A model generated the notes under the pieces. It saw only the letters and a list, made by a program, of their open reading frames with translations. It was not told the origin of the DNA and did no database searches. Shown here piece by piece: positions 13,080 to 63,151 of a DNA stretch of 64,000 nucleotides. Every line of letters begins with the position of its first letter. The stretch's first letter is position 1. The translations under genes and the position numbers were made by a program. Source of the DNA: Carcharhinus longimanus (Eukaryota); the NCBI GenBank assembly GCA_030264375.1, contig JASCQW010000105.1:14957507-15021506 (forward strand), given 5' to 3'.

Positions 13080-15408
13080 TGGGAGATCCTTTGTATGCGT
13101 AGCCCTGTTTGTTTCAGTCTGAAAGACTTCATTTTAAGAGTTTTCTGCCAATGCACAATTACATTTAAATACTAGACTGTAGGGGTAACAAATTCTGCTA
13201 AACTGAACAATTGTAGATAGCTTGACTACATGTAGAATCAGAAGGCATGATGGGTTAGCTAAAAATTTACACTTCCAATACCAAGATAAGAGTTGAAATA
13301 TATTTTGGATTTTAGTGTGTTTTTTTTCAGTTTCAAGATGCAGTTCAGTTTGAAAGTAGAAAGAAACTTAAACAAGGTGTAAGGAAGGCTAAAAGGGGTC
13401 ATGAAAAGTCATTGGCCAGCAGGATTAAGGAAAATCCCAAGGCTTTTTATACAAATATAAAGAGCAAGAGGGTACCCAGGGAAAGGGTTGGCCCACTCGA
13501 AAGGGGAGGGAATCTATGCATGGTGTCAGAGAAAATGGGCGAAGTATTAAATGAGTATTTTGCATCAGTATTCACCAAGGAGAAGAACTTGGTGCACGAT
13601 GAGTCTGCAAAAGGATGTGTGGATAGTTTGAGTCATGTTGAGAGCAAAAAGGTCGAGGTAGTGAGGTTCTTGAGGAACGTTAAAGTGGACAAATCCCCAG
13701 GGCCTGATGGGATATACCCCTGAATACTGAGAGAGGCTAGGGAGGAAATTGCTGGGGCCATGAGAGAAATCTTTGTATTCCTCACTGGCTACAGGGGAGG
13801 TCCCAGAGGATTGGAGAATAGCCAGTGTTGTTTCTTTGTTTAAGAAAGATAGCAAGAATAATCCAGCTAATTACAGTCTGGTGAGCCTTACATCAGTAGT
13901 AGGGAAATTATTGGAGAGGATTTTTCAAGTCAGGATTTACTCCCACTTGGAAATAACGATGTATTAGCGAGAGACAACATGGTTTTGTACAGCGGAGGTC
14001 ATGTCTCACTTACTTGATCGAGTTTTTCGAGGAAGTGAAGATGATGATTGAGGGTAGGACAGTGGATGTTTCTAGATGAACTTCAGTAAGGCCTTTGACA
14101 AGGGCCCCCATGGCAGACTGGTGCAGAAGGTGAAGTCGCATGGGATCAGTGGTGAGCTGGCAAAGTGGATACAGAACTGGCTCAGTCAGAGAAGATGGAG
14201 GGTAGTAGTGGAAGGGTGCATTTCTGAGTGGAGGGCTGTGACAAGTGGCATTTCTCAGGGATCAGTGCTGGGACCTTTGCTGTTTGTAATATATATATAA
14301 ATTATATGGAGGAAAATGTAACTGGTTTGATTAGTAAGTTTGCGGACAACACAAGGATTAGTGGATTTGCAGATCACGATAAGGACTGTCAGAGGATACA
14401 GCAGGATATAGATCGTTTGGGCAGAGAGATGGCAGATGGAGTTTAATCTGGACAAATGTGAGGTTATGCATTTTGGAAGGTCTAATGAAGATAGGAAATA
14501 TACAGTAAATGGCAGAACCCTTAAGAGTATTGATAGTCAGAGGGATCTGGGCACAGGTACACAGGTCACTGAAAGTGGCAACGCAGGTGGAGAAGGTAAT
14601 CAAGAAGGTAAACGGCATGCTTGCCTTCATTGGCCAAGGCATTGAGTTTAAAAATTGGCAAGTCATGTTGCCGCTTTACAGAGTCTTAGTTAGACCACAC
14701 TCGGAATATAGTGTTCAATTCAGGTTGCCCCACTACCAGAAGAATGTGGAGGCTTTGGAGAAGGTACAGAAAAGATTTGCCAGGATGTTGCCTGGTTTAG
14801 AGGGCATTAGCTGTGAGAAGAGGTTGCAGAAACTTGGTTTGTTCTTTCTGGAACGGCGGAGGTTGAGTGGTGATCTGATAGAAGACTACAAGATTATGAG
14901 GGGCATGGACAGAGTGGATAGTCAGAAGCTTTTTCCCAGGGTGAAGAGTCAGTTACTGGGGGGCATAGGTTTAAGGTACAAGGGGCAAGATTTAAAGGAG
15001 ATGTACGAGGCAAGCTTTTTTTGCGCGGAGGATGGTGGGTGCCTGAAACTCTCTGCCGGAGGAGGTTGTGGAAGCAGATACAATAGTTTTTAAGGGGCAA
15101 TTTGACAAATACATGAATCGGGTGGGAATGGAGAGATATGGTCCCCAGAAGAGTAGGGGATTTTAGTTCAGTCAGGCAGCATGATCGGTGCGGGTTTGGA
15201 GGGTCAAAGGGCCTGTTCCTGTGCTGTAATTTTCTTTGTCCTTTGTTTAAGTTCAGTACAGGGCCTGACTGAGTGATGCCAGTCTCCAAGTTTTGTTTCC
15301 TTCTCTGTCATGTTAATTCTTTTAAGTTCTGTTCAATAAAAGAAAACATTTTAAACTCGTACAAAGTGGTGTCCCCTTGTCTTTTCAAACGAATGAATGG
15401 ACCCAACA
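13080..15408 (+). repeat. ERV 5' LTR, split by a CR1 insertion (LTR parts ~13080-13348 and ~15249-15408)
   Basis: Both halves align to consecutive parts of the 3' LTR (e.g. gcacaattacatttaaat..., gggttagctaaaaatt, gaatgaatggac.caaca). AATAAA is present at 15335-15340. Confidence 0.9.
13350..15248 (+). mobile_element. 5'-truncated CR1-clade LINE (ORF2 RT and 3' UTR) inserted in the ERV 5' LTR
   Basis: RT-region motifs KSPGPDGIYP, SLTSVVGKLLE, FSKAFDK, SQGSVLGPLLF, FADNT, LVRPHSEYSVQF and LERRRLSGDLIE. The 3' end reads gggcctgttcctgtgctgta followed by (TTCTTTG)-like repeats. Confidence 0.93.
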
Positions 15409-29500: not shown

Positions 29501-29970
29501 TATAATTAAACTGTTGTACTATTTTTCTTCTGACTAACTCCAATTAAAATATTTTCATGAGAGCCCAAAATGGATAATGATTCAAAGACATTTAATTGAT
29601 TCAGTAGAATAATGATTTCCAAATATCTTCTGAAGTATCAATCTAGCAGAAATAGGAATATGAATTTAGTAATTACTGTTTTCACACAAAGCAATTAGTT
29701 GCATTCCACCTTTGCTGCTTAAGGTATATCTGCAGTATAGTACGAGAACAAAATCCTTAATACCAAAGTCCTTGCAAAGGTGCTGTAAACCTGGTCTCGA
29801 TGGCATATGCATCAGATCTCTGTTTCATTGGGTTGACCATGTGATTTGCAAAGAAAATTCTGTGTACAGCCAGCTGAGCAGAGGAACCTGAACCATAGGA
29901 CATTCCTATTGTAAAGATTTTTTCTGTGTCGCACTAAAGCTCAGAGGCTTGAAAGATGGAAGAGTAGCTT

Positions 29971-31182
29971 TGTTGTCAACACGTAACTATATACACATGT
30001 ATAAGCTGTAGCTCAAACATACGCATGTATTACGTATAGCCCAGACAATGAGCTAACTTCATACTTGCTTCAGCATAAGTCTCAAGACCATGTCTGCTCC
30101 ATGTCCTAACCAGACAGTTGCTTGTCATATGACTATTTACATCACACTGTAGGTGATGCTGTTTAACATTTATCCTTCCTATGCCAAAAAGCCTTATACT
30201 ACACCTTTCCTAAATCTTACCCAATATATTTACAATATGATCTCTTTTTATGTGCATCCCTTGTTCTCACCCTCCAAAGACTCTGACTTTATAAATTCAG
30301 ATGGTCTTGAGGCTTGTTGATTCTTATCTCATTCTGGTCATATCAGCAAACTTCGTTGGTTTGATGTTGAACTCATAGAGTACTCTGTTTCTGGGACTTG
30401 GTTGTCTTCACTTAATTCACTTTTTGCTCACCTTGGAATTGAACCTTTCCTTATCAACAATCTTTGTTTGGATACCATGGGCTTGTCCCATTCCTTCCAA
30501 AGGGAGAGTTCTCTCTCTTCCTTCACAATGGTCTTTTTCTGCCATGGGGTCTGCTATCATCTTTCCAGAAATTTCACTTTCAGCAATTAAACCTTTATTT
30601 CAATTTGTTTAATAATTTTAGCCAAATTAGTTCATTTTCACGTTCCAATTCTTTTTCAAGTTTGAGTCTTTTCAATCAGCTCAGCAACTACTCTGCTGAG
30701 TTCAGTTTTCTTTATTTAGAATTCCCTACAGAATTATTGTACAAATTTAACAACTTCACCTGAGCATTCAGTTTCATTTGGAATCTTTCTTCCCTTGTCA
30801 CTGACTGTTCCTTAGACTATTTTAACCCTCTTTTTAGATCCTCAAACTGTTTCTTAGAATTTTTATTGTGTGCTTTTAAAATCTGGATGTGTTCTTCCAT
30901 ACTGCGCACCTTCTTTCATGTTCTTCATGTTGGAGGTTCAAGAATTTAATCAGTTTAGATTATTAATTTGGAATTCATCCAGCTGTTCTGATCCATCAGG
31001 AATTCCTTATCCTGTTCCTGTTTCATGATACTTAACAGAGATTTCAGATAATTAGGCCATGTCTTAACCGGGCTGCTCTGTGTACAGGTGTCTTGTCATG
31101 TGACTCTTTACATCACATTGTGGGCAGTACTGTTTTCCAGTTCCACATTAACCCTTGCTATGCCAAACACCCTTATGTTCCA
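29971..31182 (-). mobile_element. Non-autonomous Gypsy-like LTR element carrying a TPR-like insert
   Basis: Direct repeats: a full LTR-like 29971-30203 (TG...CA) and a partial copy ~31055-31182 sharing cttgtcat.tgact.tttacatcaca.tgt and ctatgccaaa.a.ccttat. On the - strand a purine tract TAGGAAAGG precedes the complete LTR, and a Gypsy-integrase-like C-terminus RINKPQDHLNL* ends at 30289. No TSD was found. Confidence 0.65.
30625..31051 (-). pseudogene. Decayed, intron-less fragment homologous to the nucleoprotein TPR N-terminal coiled coil
   Basis: - strand translation across frameshifts and stops: [108 protein letters not shown]. These are collinear with TPR as recalled: [107 protein letters not shown]. 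Confidence 0.78.
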
Positions 31183-32144
31183 ACCCCTAATTTAGATACA
31201 AATATGTTTTGAATGCCAATCTCAAAACCTGAAGGTTGAACCCCCCTACAATGGGGGAAAAAAATAGCCCTGCACAGATTCAAATGGAGAAGTCTTGATG
31301 CTATGATCTCAATTGAGACTAACTTTTTTTATTTAAAAAGAAATCTGAAATTTGCTGGAAGTACAAAACCGTAACATTCCCCAGTTTCAAAGCAAACACG
31401 GAATACTACCTTGATTTTCTAAAACCTAGAATCAACATCAGTTAAATATTTACAGGAAAATTGCAGTCAATTATAATCTATAAATTACATGTTGAGTGGA
31501 ATATACAACTAAGATAGATCTTATAAATTGACTCNNNNNNNNNNNNNNNNNNNNNNNNNNNNNNNNNNNNNNNNNNNNNNNNNNNNNNNNNNNNNNNNNN
31601 NNNNNNNNNNNNNNNNNNNNNNNNNNNNNNNNNNGACTCCAATCAATTCAGTATATATGTCATCAATTTCAGTTGCAAAATCTTTAAAACTCTGTCTCCA
31701 TCACAAAGATTTTCAACTCGTTAAGGATTTTATCTGATTTTTTTAACCAACAGCAGTGCATGACCAAACAGAATTCCACTTCATTGTCTTCACCAAAAGT
31801 GGATCAACTTTGCAGAATCTGCTCAACTCTGCCTATGGTAGTTTGAATGGCATTGCTGCATTCGTGGTATCTTCAAACAATAAAAACATTTGCAGCAACT
31901 AAATCTTTGCTTATTCTCAGTTTCAGAATCTAGCCTCTCTTCTTCAGCCTGCCTGTACTATTCCATTGCACATAGCATCTACCACTGAGTCTGTGCTCTG
32001 TGTTCTTTTATATGATTTCCATTAAGTTCACTCTCCCCCACGTTCTGGTATACAATCTTACTACCCTGAGAAACTGCGTCAGAGTCTTTTCTCAGTTTTC
32101 CTGTCTTAACATGATTTAAAAAGAGACTTAATCTCTAAAACAAT

Positions 32145-41205: not shown

Positions 41206-41283
41206 AATGTCTGTGTTGATAGATGTGATCTTTGTGGAGACCCTCTCCACTTCGAGCTGACAGTTTGTGGTGTTGGTGGTAGC

Positions 41284-41519
41284 CACGATGTGGAGATACT
41301 GGCATTGGACTGGGATAGGCTCAGTAAGAATTCTCACAACACCAGGTTAAAGTCCAACAGGTTTATTTGGAGTCACGAGCTTTCAGAGTGCTGTTTCTAA
41401 GGAGGAGCTCCTAAACAGCGCTCCGAAAGCTCGTGATTCCAAACAAACCAGTTGGACTTTAACTTGGCATTGTGAGACTTCTTACTGAGCCCACCCCAGT
41501 CCAGCATCTCCATATCATG
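41284..41519. repeat. Penelope-derived hairpin (short fold-back)
   Basis: Inverted arms ~41284-41396 and ~41413-41519 of the same terminal repeat, separated by a 16-nt spacer containing the palindrome AGGAGCTCCT. Confidence 0.8.
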
Positions 41520-43246
41520 TCTACAAACGGTAGCAGCTGGGTAAGTAGGTGAAATAAGAAGGAAAAATTAACCCAGTTCATTAATTTAAAACATGTTTGT
41601 CACTCCAAAGATTCTGCCAGATCTGCTGAGTATTTCCAACATAATCTGTTTTTGTATTAGATTTCGTATATCCACAGTTTATTTTGTAATTACAAAGCAG
41701 AGGTTCAATATAGGGAACAGGAAAAATGTTGAATTTTTAATCAAAGAGGAAATTACTAAATATCTAGATAAAGAGAAATTAATTTGAGCTGCCAACACAG
41801 ATTTTTGAAAGAAAGATTGGCTTGGCAACATAGTTCTTTGAAGACATGACAGATGTTATAGATGGGGAACCGTAATGGATGTGTATGTGAACTTTTAAAA
41901 AGCTTTTGACAAGGTCTCGCACAGGGAGTTATTGAAGAAGATCAAGAGACATTGAATTAAGAGAAAGTTAGCAAATTGGATTAAAACTGGTTTGAAAAGA
42001 TGAAACAGAGTTGAGGAGTTAAGGGCAATTTCTCAGAGCATGACGCTGCAACAAATGCAGAAATAATTCTGTTCTGATTTCAGAACTGGTTTCATCACCT
42101 TGATGTTGCAAAATTAAAAATAAACAGCTTGAAATATTGTATTTCTCCAATTTCCTTTTTGATATCTTCATTAACATTTCCCCCAATTTCCTTTAATTTT
42201 TATCATTTGAGTTTTACCTTTCAGATTGGTTGTAACTAAATCCAAATTTTTCTTATTAGTTCTTGGGTAATTGCATATCCATTTTCCAGTGCTACCACTG
42301 TAATCCATTATTTGTTCCAACAGTTGGAGTTGCTTCATCTGAAATTCCCTCCAGTGAAACAGCAAGTCCAAAGTTTTATCTTCCAACCAGTCATGGATAA
42401 GAACCCTAGAAACTGTCACAGAAGGAACAGAACCAATCTTTAAAAACTGGAATACTCCTTCCAATTCCACTCTAGTGATGAAGACAGTTGCCAGCTTCCA
42501 CTTTGCCCCCTGCTAATAGTCTCTGCCTTCAACTTCCAGGATCTGCCTGAGGATAATAGCTCAAAATCTGGTATCAATTCTTCAGTGCACTACCTAGTCA
42601 TTTCAAACATCCCTTCTCAATTTAACATTTTTTTAAAGGAGACACGAGGCCATGTGAGCTTTGGGTCTAGCTGTTCTTGTGATTGCTAGGCGAGCATGTT
42701 TACTTAACAGTAATACTTTAACACATAACTATAAAATATAGAAGTGAAGAAAACGTGTACTTTTTTGTCAGAGATATGGGTGTAGCAGCCATTGCCAGGT
42801 AATTTGCATTGACTAGGAGGTGGAAAGGGAAAGAGTATCTCAGGTCATTCAAAGTATATGGCTTGAAGTCACGTTCTCAGCTATTTTGGCAATTCAGCTG
42901 TTACACATGGCTTAAGAGCCCCTGCAGTAAGATGAAGAAAATTAACTAGGGTCGTTTCTCCTGATTGCTATCTAATGACTCCTAGAAGGTTATATGAGTG
43001 TGGATGTGAAGACACAGCTTGCTAACTCACTGAGACACATAGGTTGCCACATGCAGGATGTTTATTAGTGTAAGATGTTGGATGGTGCACAGCAATCATG
43101 AAAGTATCTCGGGGAAGAGGCATTACCATCTGGGGAGGAGTATGGAACAATAGCTTGGTCAAAGAAGGAGGAAGTAAATTGTGTAGTTTAATGCCAAACA
43201 TGTGCTCTGGGACAAATTTGTAATGTTGTCACCCACTTCTATATAA

Positions 43247-43577: not shown

Positions 43578-43944
43578 TTCTGCAACTTTTCATGTTTGGT
43601 ACAGAATCAGATCTAAATTAATCTCATTTTTCAGTTTCAGTACCTTTTTCTAAAATATAATGAGTGATTTTAACTGTCAACTGGTTTCCTTTGGCAAACT
43701 GCTAACGCCAACTAACTTCCTAACAGTCAGTGCAATATGAAAGAGTGACAGTTTTAACTAGTGGATCCCATTAACCTGCCACTGATCTATTTCCCATCAA
43801 GAATTAGTCAGACGTGGGTGGGAGGATGTGCTGCTGGCCTCCCAAAAACCATGATGTGGAGATGCCGGCGTTGGACTGGGGTAAACACAGTAAGAAGTCT
43901 CACAACACCAGGTTAAAGTCCACAGGTTTATTTGGTAGCAAACG

Positions 43945-43981
43945 CCACTATCTTTCGGAGCGCTGCTCCTTCGTCAGGTGA
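43945..43981 (-). ncRNA. Minimal hammerhead-ribozyme motif (opposite arm)
   Basis: - strand TCAC-CTGACGA-A-GGAGC-AGC-GCTCC-GAA-AGAT-A-GTGG. Core and stem II are perfect; the palindrome is mutated to AGAT. Confidence 0.65.
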
Positions 43982-44327
43982 GTGGGAGATCTGTTCAGAA
44001 ACAGGGCATATAAAGACACAAACTTAATTTACAGAATAATGATAGAAATGCTAATCAAATAGCCAAGTTCTGCACACATGAGGGTGGCCTCAACTGGAAT
44101 CATGTCACATTATCTGTAACCCCCACAACTTGCCTGGCCTTGCAAAATCTCACTAACTGCCCTGTCTGGAGACAATACACATCTCTTTAACCTGTGCTTC
44201 ATGCTCTCTCCACTCACATTGTCTTTACCTTTAAGACTTGATTGGCTGTAAAGACTAGCATTTCAATCATTATTCTGTAAATTGAGTTTGTGTCTTTATA
44301 TGCCCTGTTTGTGAACAGATATCCCAC

Positions 44328-44364
44328 TCACCTGATGAAGGAGCAGCGCTCTGAAAGCTAGTGG
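44328..44364 (+). ncRNA. Minimal type I hammerhead-ribozyme motif in a Penelope-like terminal repeat
   Basis: TCAC-CTGATGA-A-GGAGC-AGC-GCTCT-GAA-AGCT-A-GTGG: catalytic core, stem II (one G-U), palindromic AGCT stem III, UA cleavage site and stem I CAC/GTG. Confidence 0.7.
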
Positions 44365-46734
44365 TGTTTGCTACCAAATTACCAAATAAACCTGTTGGAC
44401 TTTAACCTGGTGTTGCGAGACTTCTTACTGTGTTTACCCCAGTCCAACGTCTGCATCTCCACATCATACACTGCTTCTGGCATTGACATACATGATATTT
44501 TTCTTCTGTATTGTCTGTGAAGTAGATATCTTGGGGCTGTTCATGACATTTTAGTAGTGTGTATGCAGACTGCCCCCAACACCAACCCCCCTCCATTGCC
44601 CCTGACCCCCATCAAGTCACTTTGGAAATTTGCCATTTCTAGCTTTCCAACATGCCTTAGGGCTTTGCAATCTTTTGGGAGAAACAGTGTCTCCTTCACC
44701 TGCAATGCCTGTATCAGGGTCTCTTTCGCAGTTTGGAAAACTTTGCCATATTTAGGGCAAGTTCTTACGGAATTTCTGCCTTCAGACTACATTTCCCCTA
44801 TAAGTTGCTTTTAATTGGCATCACAAATACCCAAAACCTAACTCTTCCCCCCTCCCCAGCGCATCCCCACACCCTCCCAAAAGTATGCATCCAGTGAGAT
44901 GCACAGGTAGTGCTAGCTGTACATCATTAAAGTCAGGAAGCAGAAGGAATATTGAGCATTGTCTGTAAACATTTGAATTGGTGGACCTGGGTTGATCCAG
45001 ATTTCTAAGCCATAATCTAAGCCAGTTTTGACTATGTGAATAATTGAGACCGCCAAAACAGATGAACTGATCTGTCACCTTATTGCTATTTGTCTGACCT
45101 TGATGTGTGTACAGTGATAGCCATATTTGTCTCCTCATTTATCCTTCAAAGTGAAGATGATTATGTTCTGCATCTGGGGTATTCCACAGGGTATGTTGGT
45201 GATTGCTACAGCCAATCTTCACCGAGTAGGTTCTGCTACCAGTGGGATGGGATACCACACGTGATTGAGTCTTAGGTGAGTTGCTGGCTTGGGATTTCCT
45301 CTCCTTTCGTTTTCTCTGTACTTTTGAAATGCGCTTGCTTTCAAAGTAGGTTTCTTTTATTTGATTGCCCCAGGTGCAACAATCCTGGGCAAGCTTCTCC
45401 CAGGACTTGAAGTTAGTGTCAAAACTCCTGAGTGAAATCTTCAGAGAGTCCTTTTACTATCACAAGACCATCATTCCAGACTCGAGTTCTGATCGGTGCA
45501 GGCTTGGAGTGCTGAAGGGCCTGTTCCTGTGCTGTACTGTTCTTTGTTCTTGTTCTTCTCTCCACAGAAGGTTCACTTTGTAAGCATGTGTTAGGCATCC
45601 TGGTAACATGACCAGCCTAACTCGTTTATGACTGTCTCACTCCAAGATTGATGTTCAACGTCTGCTCCATTCTCAAAGTTACAAAGCCAAGCTGACAAAA
45701 TGAGGCATTGCACCCCAACCTGAGCTTGATCTTTGCCAAAAGGCCAAGAAGTTTGCTGAAAGTTACACTTGCTTTGACAATTATTGTATGTTGTTTTGTC
45801 ATCAAAAGCTTGTGCTCTTAAGATAAGTAAAATTCTTCACTGCTGACAGGTTCTAGTCATGCACTGAAAACTTGGGCTGAAGATAGGACTTTCCAAGAGC
45901 AGGCTGATATATTATTTAAGTTTCCTTTGTGCCGATTGAAGAATGTTTATATTTGGAGATATAGACAGTGATTACACTTCAGAAATAATTATTTGGCTTT
46001 TATATGATTTGGCACCTCCAGATGTGGAAAATGCTGAAGAAATACAAGCTGTTTTTTGTGTTCTGTGCATTGTTTCTCAGTTGGAGTTTGAGCTACAAGC
46101 AGGAACAAATAAATTTGAAATTATAGGACAAAAGCTGGAAGTACTATCATCCACTGTTGTCACTTATTTCATCATTTCAATTAGAAAAACCTGATGGCAC
46201 TGACTCTCTGTGACAAAAGAGTTACTTAGAAGACAAGTAAATATGACCCTTCAGAATATTATAAAACATCTGCAAACCTCTGATTTATCCCAAAGGTTAA
46301 TTGTTCCTGATGGGAAAGAAAGGAGGCATCCAAAAAGACCAAGACACCGGCTTAATTTCCTGTTCTAGCCTTCATTTGTGAGTTCAGAATGCTTAACTTG
46401 AAACGTGCATCACTGAATGCAGTAGTTGCTGATTACTGTATATTCAATAAAATACATCACCCACATTCCTGTGCAGTGAACCATAGAGACTTTCAGCCTT
46501 TAGCTGCTCTCCCGCTCTCTCACTTGTATCTTGTTAGTCTAACTCTGTCCAAGTTTCAGGGATATCTTGGAAACCCTTCCCCTCTCGAAGCACATATCCA
46601 TGGCAAAATGTATCATGTGGGCCTTATATCCAGGCAGAAATGCAGCAGAAGGAGGTTCTGCTGCTCTAGGGATACCATGACTTCATTATGTCAGTTGATT
46701 GGACCAGAGATGGCCTCCAACTGTGTGGATCGGT

Positions 46735-62391: not shown

Positions 62392-63151
62392 GGGGGTACA
62401 GTAAGAAGCCTCACAACACCAGGTTAAAGTCCAACAGGTTTATTTGGCAGCATCAGCTTTCGGAGCACTGCTCCTTCATCAGGTGAAGAAAGCTTGTGCT
62501 ACCAAATAAACCTGTTGGACTTTAACCTGGTGTTGTGAGACTTCTTACTGTGCCCACCCCAGTCNNNNNNNNNNNNNNNNNNNNNNNNNNNNNNNNNNNN
62601 NNNNNNNNNNNNNNNNNNNNNNNNNNNNNNNNNNNNNNNNNNNNNNNNNNNNNNNNNNNNNNNNCTACCAAATAAACCTGTTGGACTTTAACCTGGTGTT
62701 GTGAGACTTCTTACTGTGCCCACCCCAGTCCAACGCCGGCATCCCCACTTCTTGGAGTACTGTTTTGCAGTTACATGCATAACAAAAATCATAAAAATTT
62801 GCACTACATTTAAGATTCTTTTCTGTCAATGATAGTTTTGCTTTTATTTTGGCATTAATTGCAAGTTATTATTGTATTTACTATCATCTCTAAAGTAGAA
62901 GTTGCCTGTTGGGACGTAAGGATATATCGCATAGTAGAGCCATATAGGTGTTTCATGTTGTGACTGTAAAGACTTGATTTACCTGTCAAGAATAGCATTC
63001 CAACCATTGTCTTATAATTAAGTTTGTGTCTATATATGCCCTGTTTGTGAACCCAACTCCCACTCACCTGATGAAAAAGCAGCACTCTGAAAGCCATGCT
63101 ACCAAATAAACCTGTTGGACTTTAACCTGGTGTTGTGAGACTTCTTACTGT
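62392..63151. repeat. Cluster of Penelope terminal-repeat copies
   Basis: Fold-back at 62392-62564, a copy after the gap at 62665-62750, and a longer 3'-end copy at ~62960-63151 with a degenerate hammerhead (cacctgatgaaaaagcagcactctgaaagcc). Confidence 0.8.
62451..62486 (-). ncRNA. Hammerhead-like motif in a Penelope fold-back
   Basis: - strand TCAC-CTGATGA-A-GGAGC-AGT-GCTCC-GAA-AGCT-GATG. The core is intact, but the cleavage triplet and stem I 3' strand are altered. Confidence 0.55.

Follow-up and report, generated by a model that had tools for sequence, protein, structure and literature searches.

A dead, 5'-deleted member of a multi-copy, non-autonomous LTR retrotransposon family lies on the - strand of the window, the term used here for the whole stretch of 64,000 nucleotides that was analysed (14957507-15021506 of its contig, in the 2.68 Gb genome of Carcharhinus longimanus). 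Between its LTRs the element carries spliced sequence of TPR. In the backbone to which the window copy belongs, this gene closes a series of at least three host cargos, a point overlooked in an earlier sequence-only reading of the same DNA; the cargos ahead of it come from UACA and ninein. The structure of the family and the history of capture described below are held with high confidence.

On its own strand the window copy runs from an LTR remnant through pieces of TPR and a tail to a purine tract and a complete LTR (Table 1). The remnant meets TPR exon 5 across a short common stretch at ~31050-31043. The primer site, the gag-like part, UACA, ninein and the first TPR exons are deleted at this point, and because reverse transcription makes both LTRs whole, this 5' interior was lost after insertion. 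The largest TPR piece carries a 33-base deletion common to the family and is interrupted by stops and frameshifts. A common 96-base deletion, situated where the mRNA has a near-repeat, precedes the exon 10 piece, and the exon 12 piece, weak in the window copy (9/16), is clear in other copies.

Table 1. Features of the LTR element in the window
Feature	Position	Strand	Remarks
5' LTR remnant	31055..31182	-	first ~130 of ~297 bases
Spliced TPR, from the end of exon 5 into the start of exon 9	30678..31050	-	whale-shark residues ~172-309
TPR exon 10 piece	30643..30694	-	residues ~338-355
TPR exon 12 piece	30578..30637	-	residues ~418-441; after common 186-base deletion
Element-derived tail	30212..30577	-	also in gag-type sister elements without host cargo
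Putative integrase-like end RINKPQDHLNL*	30324-30289	-	within tail; aligns with tail of gag-type sister L081
Polypurine tract AGGAAAGG	30204..30211	-	
Complete 3' LTR	29907..30203	-	297 bases; TG start; CA end in orthologues of three other species labels
Possible left target-site duplication GGGGT	31183..31187	-	matches right one 3/5
Possible right target-site duplication GGAAT	29902..29906	-	

The two direct repeats noticed by the sequence-only reading are present at 30121-30171/31092-31142 (78% identical) and, when aligned further, agree at 82/99 bases (83%). They are LTRs, since full elements (L085, L159, L081, L120 and L121) are flanked on either side by this ~297-bp repeat, which adjoins a primer site and is accompanied by a target duplication in L085. 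The edge formerly placed at 29971 was wrong. The 3' LTR ends at 29907, and the CA at 29971 belongs to a degenerate poly(A)-signal region that has AATAAA in other copies. The insertion is also present in three other species labels, whose contigs cross the LTR-flank borders or span both flanks; the contig of a fourth label covers only part of it. An Rfam search of the 64-kb window gave no match, and no RNA record is listed for this stretch, which bears neither way on its expression. Elsewhere in the window, a common small element forms numerous palindromes or inverted repeats (41279-41524, 62394-62555 and 43851-44467), and a 194-codon open frame at 14509-15090 resembles the end of a CR1-type LINE reverse transcriptase.

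The identity of the cargo is clear. In a blastx comparison, window positions 31017-30715 matched whale-shark TPR with 51/114 identities and 83.6 bits, while the same insert reached at best 26.2 bits against 40 UACA/RAI14 proteins and 28.5 bits against 41 proteins from a ninein search. TPR is thus the best match, as had been expected, and not a generic coiled coil. The ungapped block, given by the sequence-only reading as about 26/58 identities to human TPR, has 26/57 when counted against chimpanzee TPR, in agreement with that figure. A protein database search with the broken frame of the window gave no match (length limit, divergence), and the cargo was therefore named via host exons. The host TPR gene is located at contig C81:53.26-53.32 Mb, with exons 1-16 placed by tblastn, and its exon 6 is 98% identical to whale-shark TPR. 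This locus is the best PF25481 match without a stop, and it is the single match in the genome to PF07926, the 3' TPR domain. Host exons are joined in the insert without introns at 5/6, 6/7, 7/8 and 8/9, as had been predicted, and in the window copy and its relatives consecutive host exons are matched end to end. The central proposal of the sequence-only reading, that an LTR element took up spliced TPR mRNA, is supported.

The family shows the features of non-autonomous LTR elements: TG...CA LTRs, a primer-binding site, a polypurine tract and a target duplication. In many copies the 5' LTR is followed by TGGTGGCAGC, the complement of the 3' end of the tRNA-Leu of the host genome plus CCA. LTR pairs are 73-84% alike in 9 elements. 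Among 4 elements inspected, the 5-bp target duplication is perfect in L085, matches at 3/5 in the window copy and is absent from two others. Copies with two LTRs are 1.6-5.3 kb long and are filled by a gag-like start, cargo and tail; no reverse transcriptase or integrase core was found in them. Neither an intact helper nor a copy with pol was found among the 6 matches to the gag-like piece or the 20 LTR-anchored loci. A Penelope-like tandem or 3'-end-only repeat was considered and is ruled out by the two-LTR copies, the primer site and the target duplication. One copy, L085 (contig C112:40219000-40228999), is a 1.6-kb miniature consisting of LTR, primer site, TPR from exon 4 onward, tail and LTR.

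The number of copies is large. The insert search returned 232 candidates, of which the best 40 were scored and all matched, those other than the window copy at 68-76%. At least 113 matches to the PF25481 profile were counted among the best 150 scored, one of them host TPR. The UACA-derived piece matched in 150/150 scored out of 627 candidates, and the ninein-derived piece in 65/150 scored. Excluding host genes, the union comprises at least 319 loci on 39 contigs, at least 145 of them with a TPR match, both figures being lower bounds. Capture-recapture estimates of 261-3389 copies are biased and support just "several hundred or more". The suggestion that the TPR-bearing element was amplified as a non-autonomous family is thereby confirmed. 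Of 20 further loci found by their LTRs, 3 carry host cargo, and the rest have a gag-like interior with the same tail or are cut short. Cargo-free sisters are seen at L081:7114-9330, L157:1755-4630 and L161:2050-4940, with a length of 2.2-2.9 kb, the same LTR and tail, and gag- and protease-like remains; they are a second non-autonomous family. Comparison of L085, L120, L121, L136 and L159 with these cargo-free elements indicates that the cargo replaces part of the interior. The sister interiors are putatively of Gypsy type (Gag, zinc knuckle, protease and integrase end), and RINKPQDHLNL* is a putative integrase-like end. Pfam matches of the family stay below the cut-off (zf-CCHC E 0.012, PNMA E 0.1-0.17), and no relative was found among PDB entries or viral contigs.

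Among 92 non-nested loci analysed, 72 carry TPR, 51 UACA and 47 ninein pieces. The long copies (L120, L121, L136, L153 and L159) begin with an LTR, the primer site, a gag-like start and ~1 kb of element sequence. UACA residues 688-719, 812-1019 and 1169-1204 come next, and after a ~90-base piece these copies continue with ninein 1162-1252, TPR 99-441 with internal deletions, the tail, the purine tract and the LTR. Each of the three cargos comes from a single host locus. The source of UACA is a single 973-codon host exon on contig C163; over 500 residues, host UACA is 93% identical to that of Mustelus and 84% to that of Carcharodon. The source of ninein is a 590-codon host exon on contig C132, for which naming against an atlas returned only generic coiled coils. 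Ahead of TPR, this backbone has UACA and ninein; TPR exons 1-2, tried as an origin of that stretch, gave no match. The ~90-base piece (L116:4359-4448) occupies the same place in most long copies, in frame with UACA and ninein. No host source for it was found among 50 matches, and it is possibly a fourth captured gene. In L088, L173 and L119 the cargo order is unusual, a late UACA piece standing ahead of earlier ones, which suggests recombination between subfamilies.

A separate group of 11 loci has other flanking sequence; 4 of them were placed in the tree (stem 0.146, support 1.0). The TPR part of this second backbone starts in exon 1, immediately behind the motif GNDLA, which we take to be the end of a Gypsy protease. 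The natural copy L143 has 62 stop-free codons running from the protease-like motif into TPR exon 1 and on to exons 3-4; in L059 and L042, exon 1 is likewise crossed in frame. The stop-free run in L143 upholds the proposed fusion of TPR to the frame of the element itself. Second-backbone copies, in element orientation, are L143:4420-5530, L059, L139, L142, L134, L058 and L042, with L141 and L055. They have zinc-knuckle- and protease-like sequence upstream, a different terminal repeat, and several hundred coding-like bases after TPR, which may be further host cargo. No copy of the window's backbone extends as deep into exon 12 as L141 and L055, which have the upstream part of the second backbone and carry the 186-base deletion of the window's backbone. 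We infer a single TPR capture. Judged by cargo length and tree position, TPR from exon 1 onward would have joined the second backbone first, behind its protease-like region; the ninein junction would be the point at which it later entered the window's backbone, with its internal deletions.

The UACA capture is old. The UACA cargo lacks 4/4 carcharhiniform-specific states and 5/5 states of host plus Mustelus, and it shares 3/3 galeomorph states. In a tree rooted on rays, 24 UACA copies form one clade inside galeomorphs and outside catshark, host and Mustelus. An AU test with 6 of the 24 copies, run in a fast search mode with fewer replicates than recommended, rejected a grouping with host plus Mustelus (p 0.014), and a position beside all carcharhiniforms (0.13) or outside galeomorphs (0.07) stayed unrejected. 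States, tree and test therefore indicate that the capture predates the split of the host lineage from catsharks; the burst of copies would also precede it.

As seen in the junctions between cargo pieces, the reading frame was largely preserved. Seven junctions, each present in at least 10 copies, are all in frame (8/10, 14/19, 10/13, 10/15, 20/24, 19/20 and 15/23 copies; modal offsets 282, 450, -1371, 117, 33, 96 and 186), comparable with continuous 30-base controls, which are in frame at 59-87%. Measured directly over the ~90-base piece, 4/19 copies are in frame, at a length where the controls are noisy; block by block the values are 13/19 and 15/20. The upstream element frame, taken over the last ~140 bases before UACA, leads into UACA in frame in 12/16, 12/16 and 14/16 copies. 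A stop is the commonest state in 0/564 codon columns, and a shared indel occurs in 0/70 intervals; neutral stems would give 3.8-5.6 breaks (P 0.004-0.02, under a rough model of our own). In the second backbone a stop is commonest in 1/126 columns, with ~3 expected. Junction phase alone is weak evidence (P just 0.015-0.32), because short matches among the host mRNAs are in frame 50-88% of the time and 22/34 single-copy junctions are also in frame. Host mRNAs share 11-13/16 bases at 4/7 switch points and 8/16 at 3/7, judged from present-day host sequence, and small shared junctions out of frame also occur (offset 127 three times; 193, 479 and 22 twice each). Stop depletion in individual copies (0.70-0.76 of expectation) is not counted as evidence, because the loci came from protein searches and 20 were chosen for long open frames. 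The intact frame for which the sequence-only reading advised a search does not appear in the loci analysed: all copies are broken, and the longest cargo frame has 205 codons. That reading also had the TPR frame run on into an integrase-like tail. The tail itself stands, as it aligns with L081; on the continuity of the frame the copies are divided, 4/8 being in frame by direct distance and block chaining giving an offset of +1.

At the protein level, copies decay neutrally after insertion (calibrated dN/dS 0.95, 0.99 and 0.86) and every one analysed is broken, unlike functional retrogenes. The tree is star-like, with terminal branches of 0.19 and internal ones of 0.017. Between host and element, dS and dN are 0.53 and 0.06 for TPR (columns that include 13 second-backbone copies), 0.26 and 0.077 for UACA, and 0.22 and 0.10 for ninein. 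At 25/30 differing TPR columns the whale shark equals the host, so the change lies on the element side, in accordance with the period of evolution inside the element that had been suspected. The silent excess of TPR (2.36 decay units, where UACA and ninein have 1.25-1.29) is no proof of constraint, because earlier capture with neutral element change (~0.45 units) and an equal host-side change fits it. TPR replacements are no more conservative than decay (mean BLOSUM -0.43 against 0.00), and the two backbones differ at 4 silent and 8 replacement sites, as under neutrality. The TPR cargo ends at residue ~440, with residues 356-417 deleted. The pore-binding domain (450-606) lies beyond this end, and the deletion cuts into the ZC3HC1-binding domain (386-481; domain limits from bioRxiv 10.64898/2026.10.08.757499). 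The retained coiled coil is of the homodimerising kind, according to PMC2876962. The suggested role in engaging or decoying the nuclear basket is poorly supported, because the amino-acid changes are non-conservative and the pore-binding domain is absent.

The following history would account for these observations. Coiled-coil mRNAs, A/G-rich and with in-frame short matches, would have been co-packaged and were probably copied into the element by successive template switches of a reverse transcriptase, which a helper element, together with integrase, would have provided. A single long frame from the gag-like start would have kept the RNA translatable and stable, so that breaks were purged while residues drifted. 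That the open frame was maintained by selection is considered probable, and we lean towards selection for the unbroken frame itself and not for TPR function. If the cargo was instead inert and merely carried along, in-frame template switches and short stems between capture and burst would have kept the register. The in-frame bias of short host matches and of single-copy junctions would be expected on such terms, as would the neutral-like replacements, a silent excess in TPR explained by earlier capture with neutral change on both sides, the stop column in the second backbone and the loss of whole cargo parts from many copies. We regard pure hitchhiking as unlikely, however, since it predicts several breaks where neither a stop column nor a shared indel is present in the main backbone, since three of the seven junctions are in frame with only half of the switch-point bases matching, and since the further joins to the element's own frame are likewise in frame.

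A chimeric coiled-coil protein may also have been made and been useful, either as an oligomerising rod fused to part of Gag or by acting as a partner of, or decoy for, TPR or centrosomal proteins. The three named cargos are all long coiled coils, each in its own sense frame; the TPR cargo persisted through two backbones; the host-versus-element dN/dS of TPR is low (0.12 raw, 0.25 calibrated); and nuclear pore components reportedly bear on Ty1 (PMC5909446). This low ratio, however, includes purifying selection in the host itself, and the replacement pattern, the missing and cut binding domains, the repeated trimming of the cargo and the shortness of the longest frame speak against such a product, which is judged improbable. 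It is equally doubtful that a vertebrate LTR lineage, in which the TPR module was handed between two backbones, built a new accessory protein from a Gag piece, UACA, ninein and TPR and reached many hundreds of copies because this protein helped it, for example by binding the TPR or centrosomal scaffolds from which its parts derive. Taken by itself, the window copy, intronless and broken, could pass for an ordinary processed pseudogene of TPR inserted into an LTR relic. Across the family this alternative, offered by the sequence-only reading for the case of a single copy, fails, as TPR is tied to the LTRs; it is given almost no credence. The internal deletions, the tail and the LTR are common to the TPR loci, 0/112 loci matched TPR exons 13-16, and PF07926 has its single match in the host gene. 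A LINE-type processed pseudogene would not end its cargo in exon 12, and the internal junctions common to copies refute this reading. Selection on an unbroken frame in a non-autonomous element stays the preferred explanation.

These findings extend LTR-driven exon shuffling in vertebrates from single events to the scale of a whole repeat family, which records successive captures and the handover of cargo between backbones. The hundreds of copies allow tests of open-frame selection in non-autonomous elements regardless of the encoded content, and they preserve old states of three shark genes. They are also an annotation trap, with more than 100 false TPR-like matches in one genome.

Transducing oncoretroviruses are defective, depend on a helper and fuse Gag to host sequence, and TPR-kinase fusions use the N-terminal coiled coil of TPR; a rat TPR-raf fusion was among the matches in the TPR protein search. 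In contrast to these viruses, no envelope, kinase or infectious phase was seen in the shark family. In the mostly open-access literature, Dfam, Repbase and the supplements of PMC5131818 (with its cases from fish, chicken and mouse) aside, neither this family nor a vertebrate case at such copy number with a kept frame was found. mRNA capture by template switching, chimeras of several parents and later non-autonomous rounds are known from the accounts in PMC5131818, PMC5408686 and PMC13317346. The LTR-mediated animal retrocopies of Tan et al. 2016 (PMC5131818) are alike in that partial spliced mRNA replaces element frames between LTRs, with several parents per locus and further non-autonomous rounds; the short matches at their joins may have a counterpart at some of the shark junctions. 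They are young, and 14/21 older ones have a loss-of-function change, whereas the shark family is ancient, comprises hundreds of loci, subfamilies and two backbones, and has no shared break in its main-backbone cargo. FAM8A1 in a human endogenous retrovirus (Jamain 2001, cited in PMC5131818) likewise joins a vertebrate LTR element to a spliced host gene, but, as summarised there, it has one parent gene and a retroviral backbone and is an untranscribed pseudogene. The bdelloid ORF3 genes (PMC5408684) are similar as acquired frames common to different backbones; in the description given there they are complete additional genes that accompany an intact gag and pol, whereas the shark host pieces replace gag-pol and have no evident function. 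The closest known case, on the accounts in PMC5131818 and PMC13317346, is maize Bs1, in which pieces of three unlinked host genes form a hybrid frame with switch points common to copies. Bs1 has 1-5 copies, is still transcribed and translated, and has one cargo that is not in frame, whereas the shark family is found in a vertebrate in hundreds of copies, dead in every case seen, with every named cargo in frame and coiled coil.
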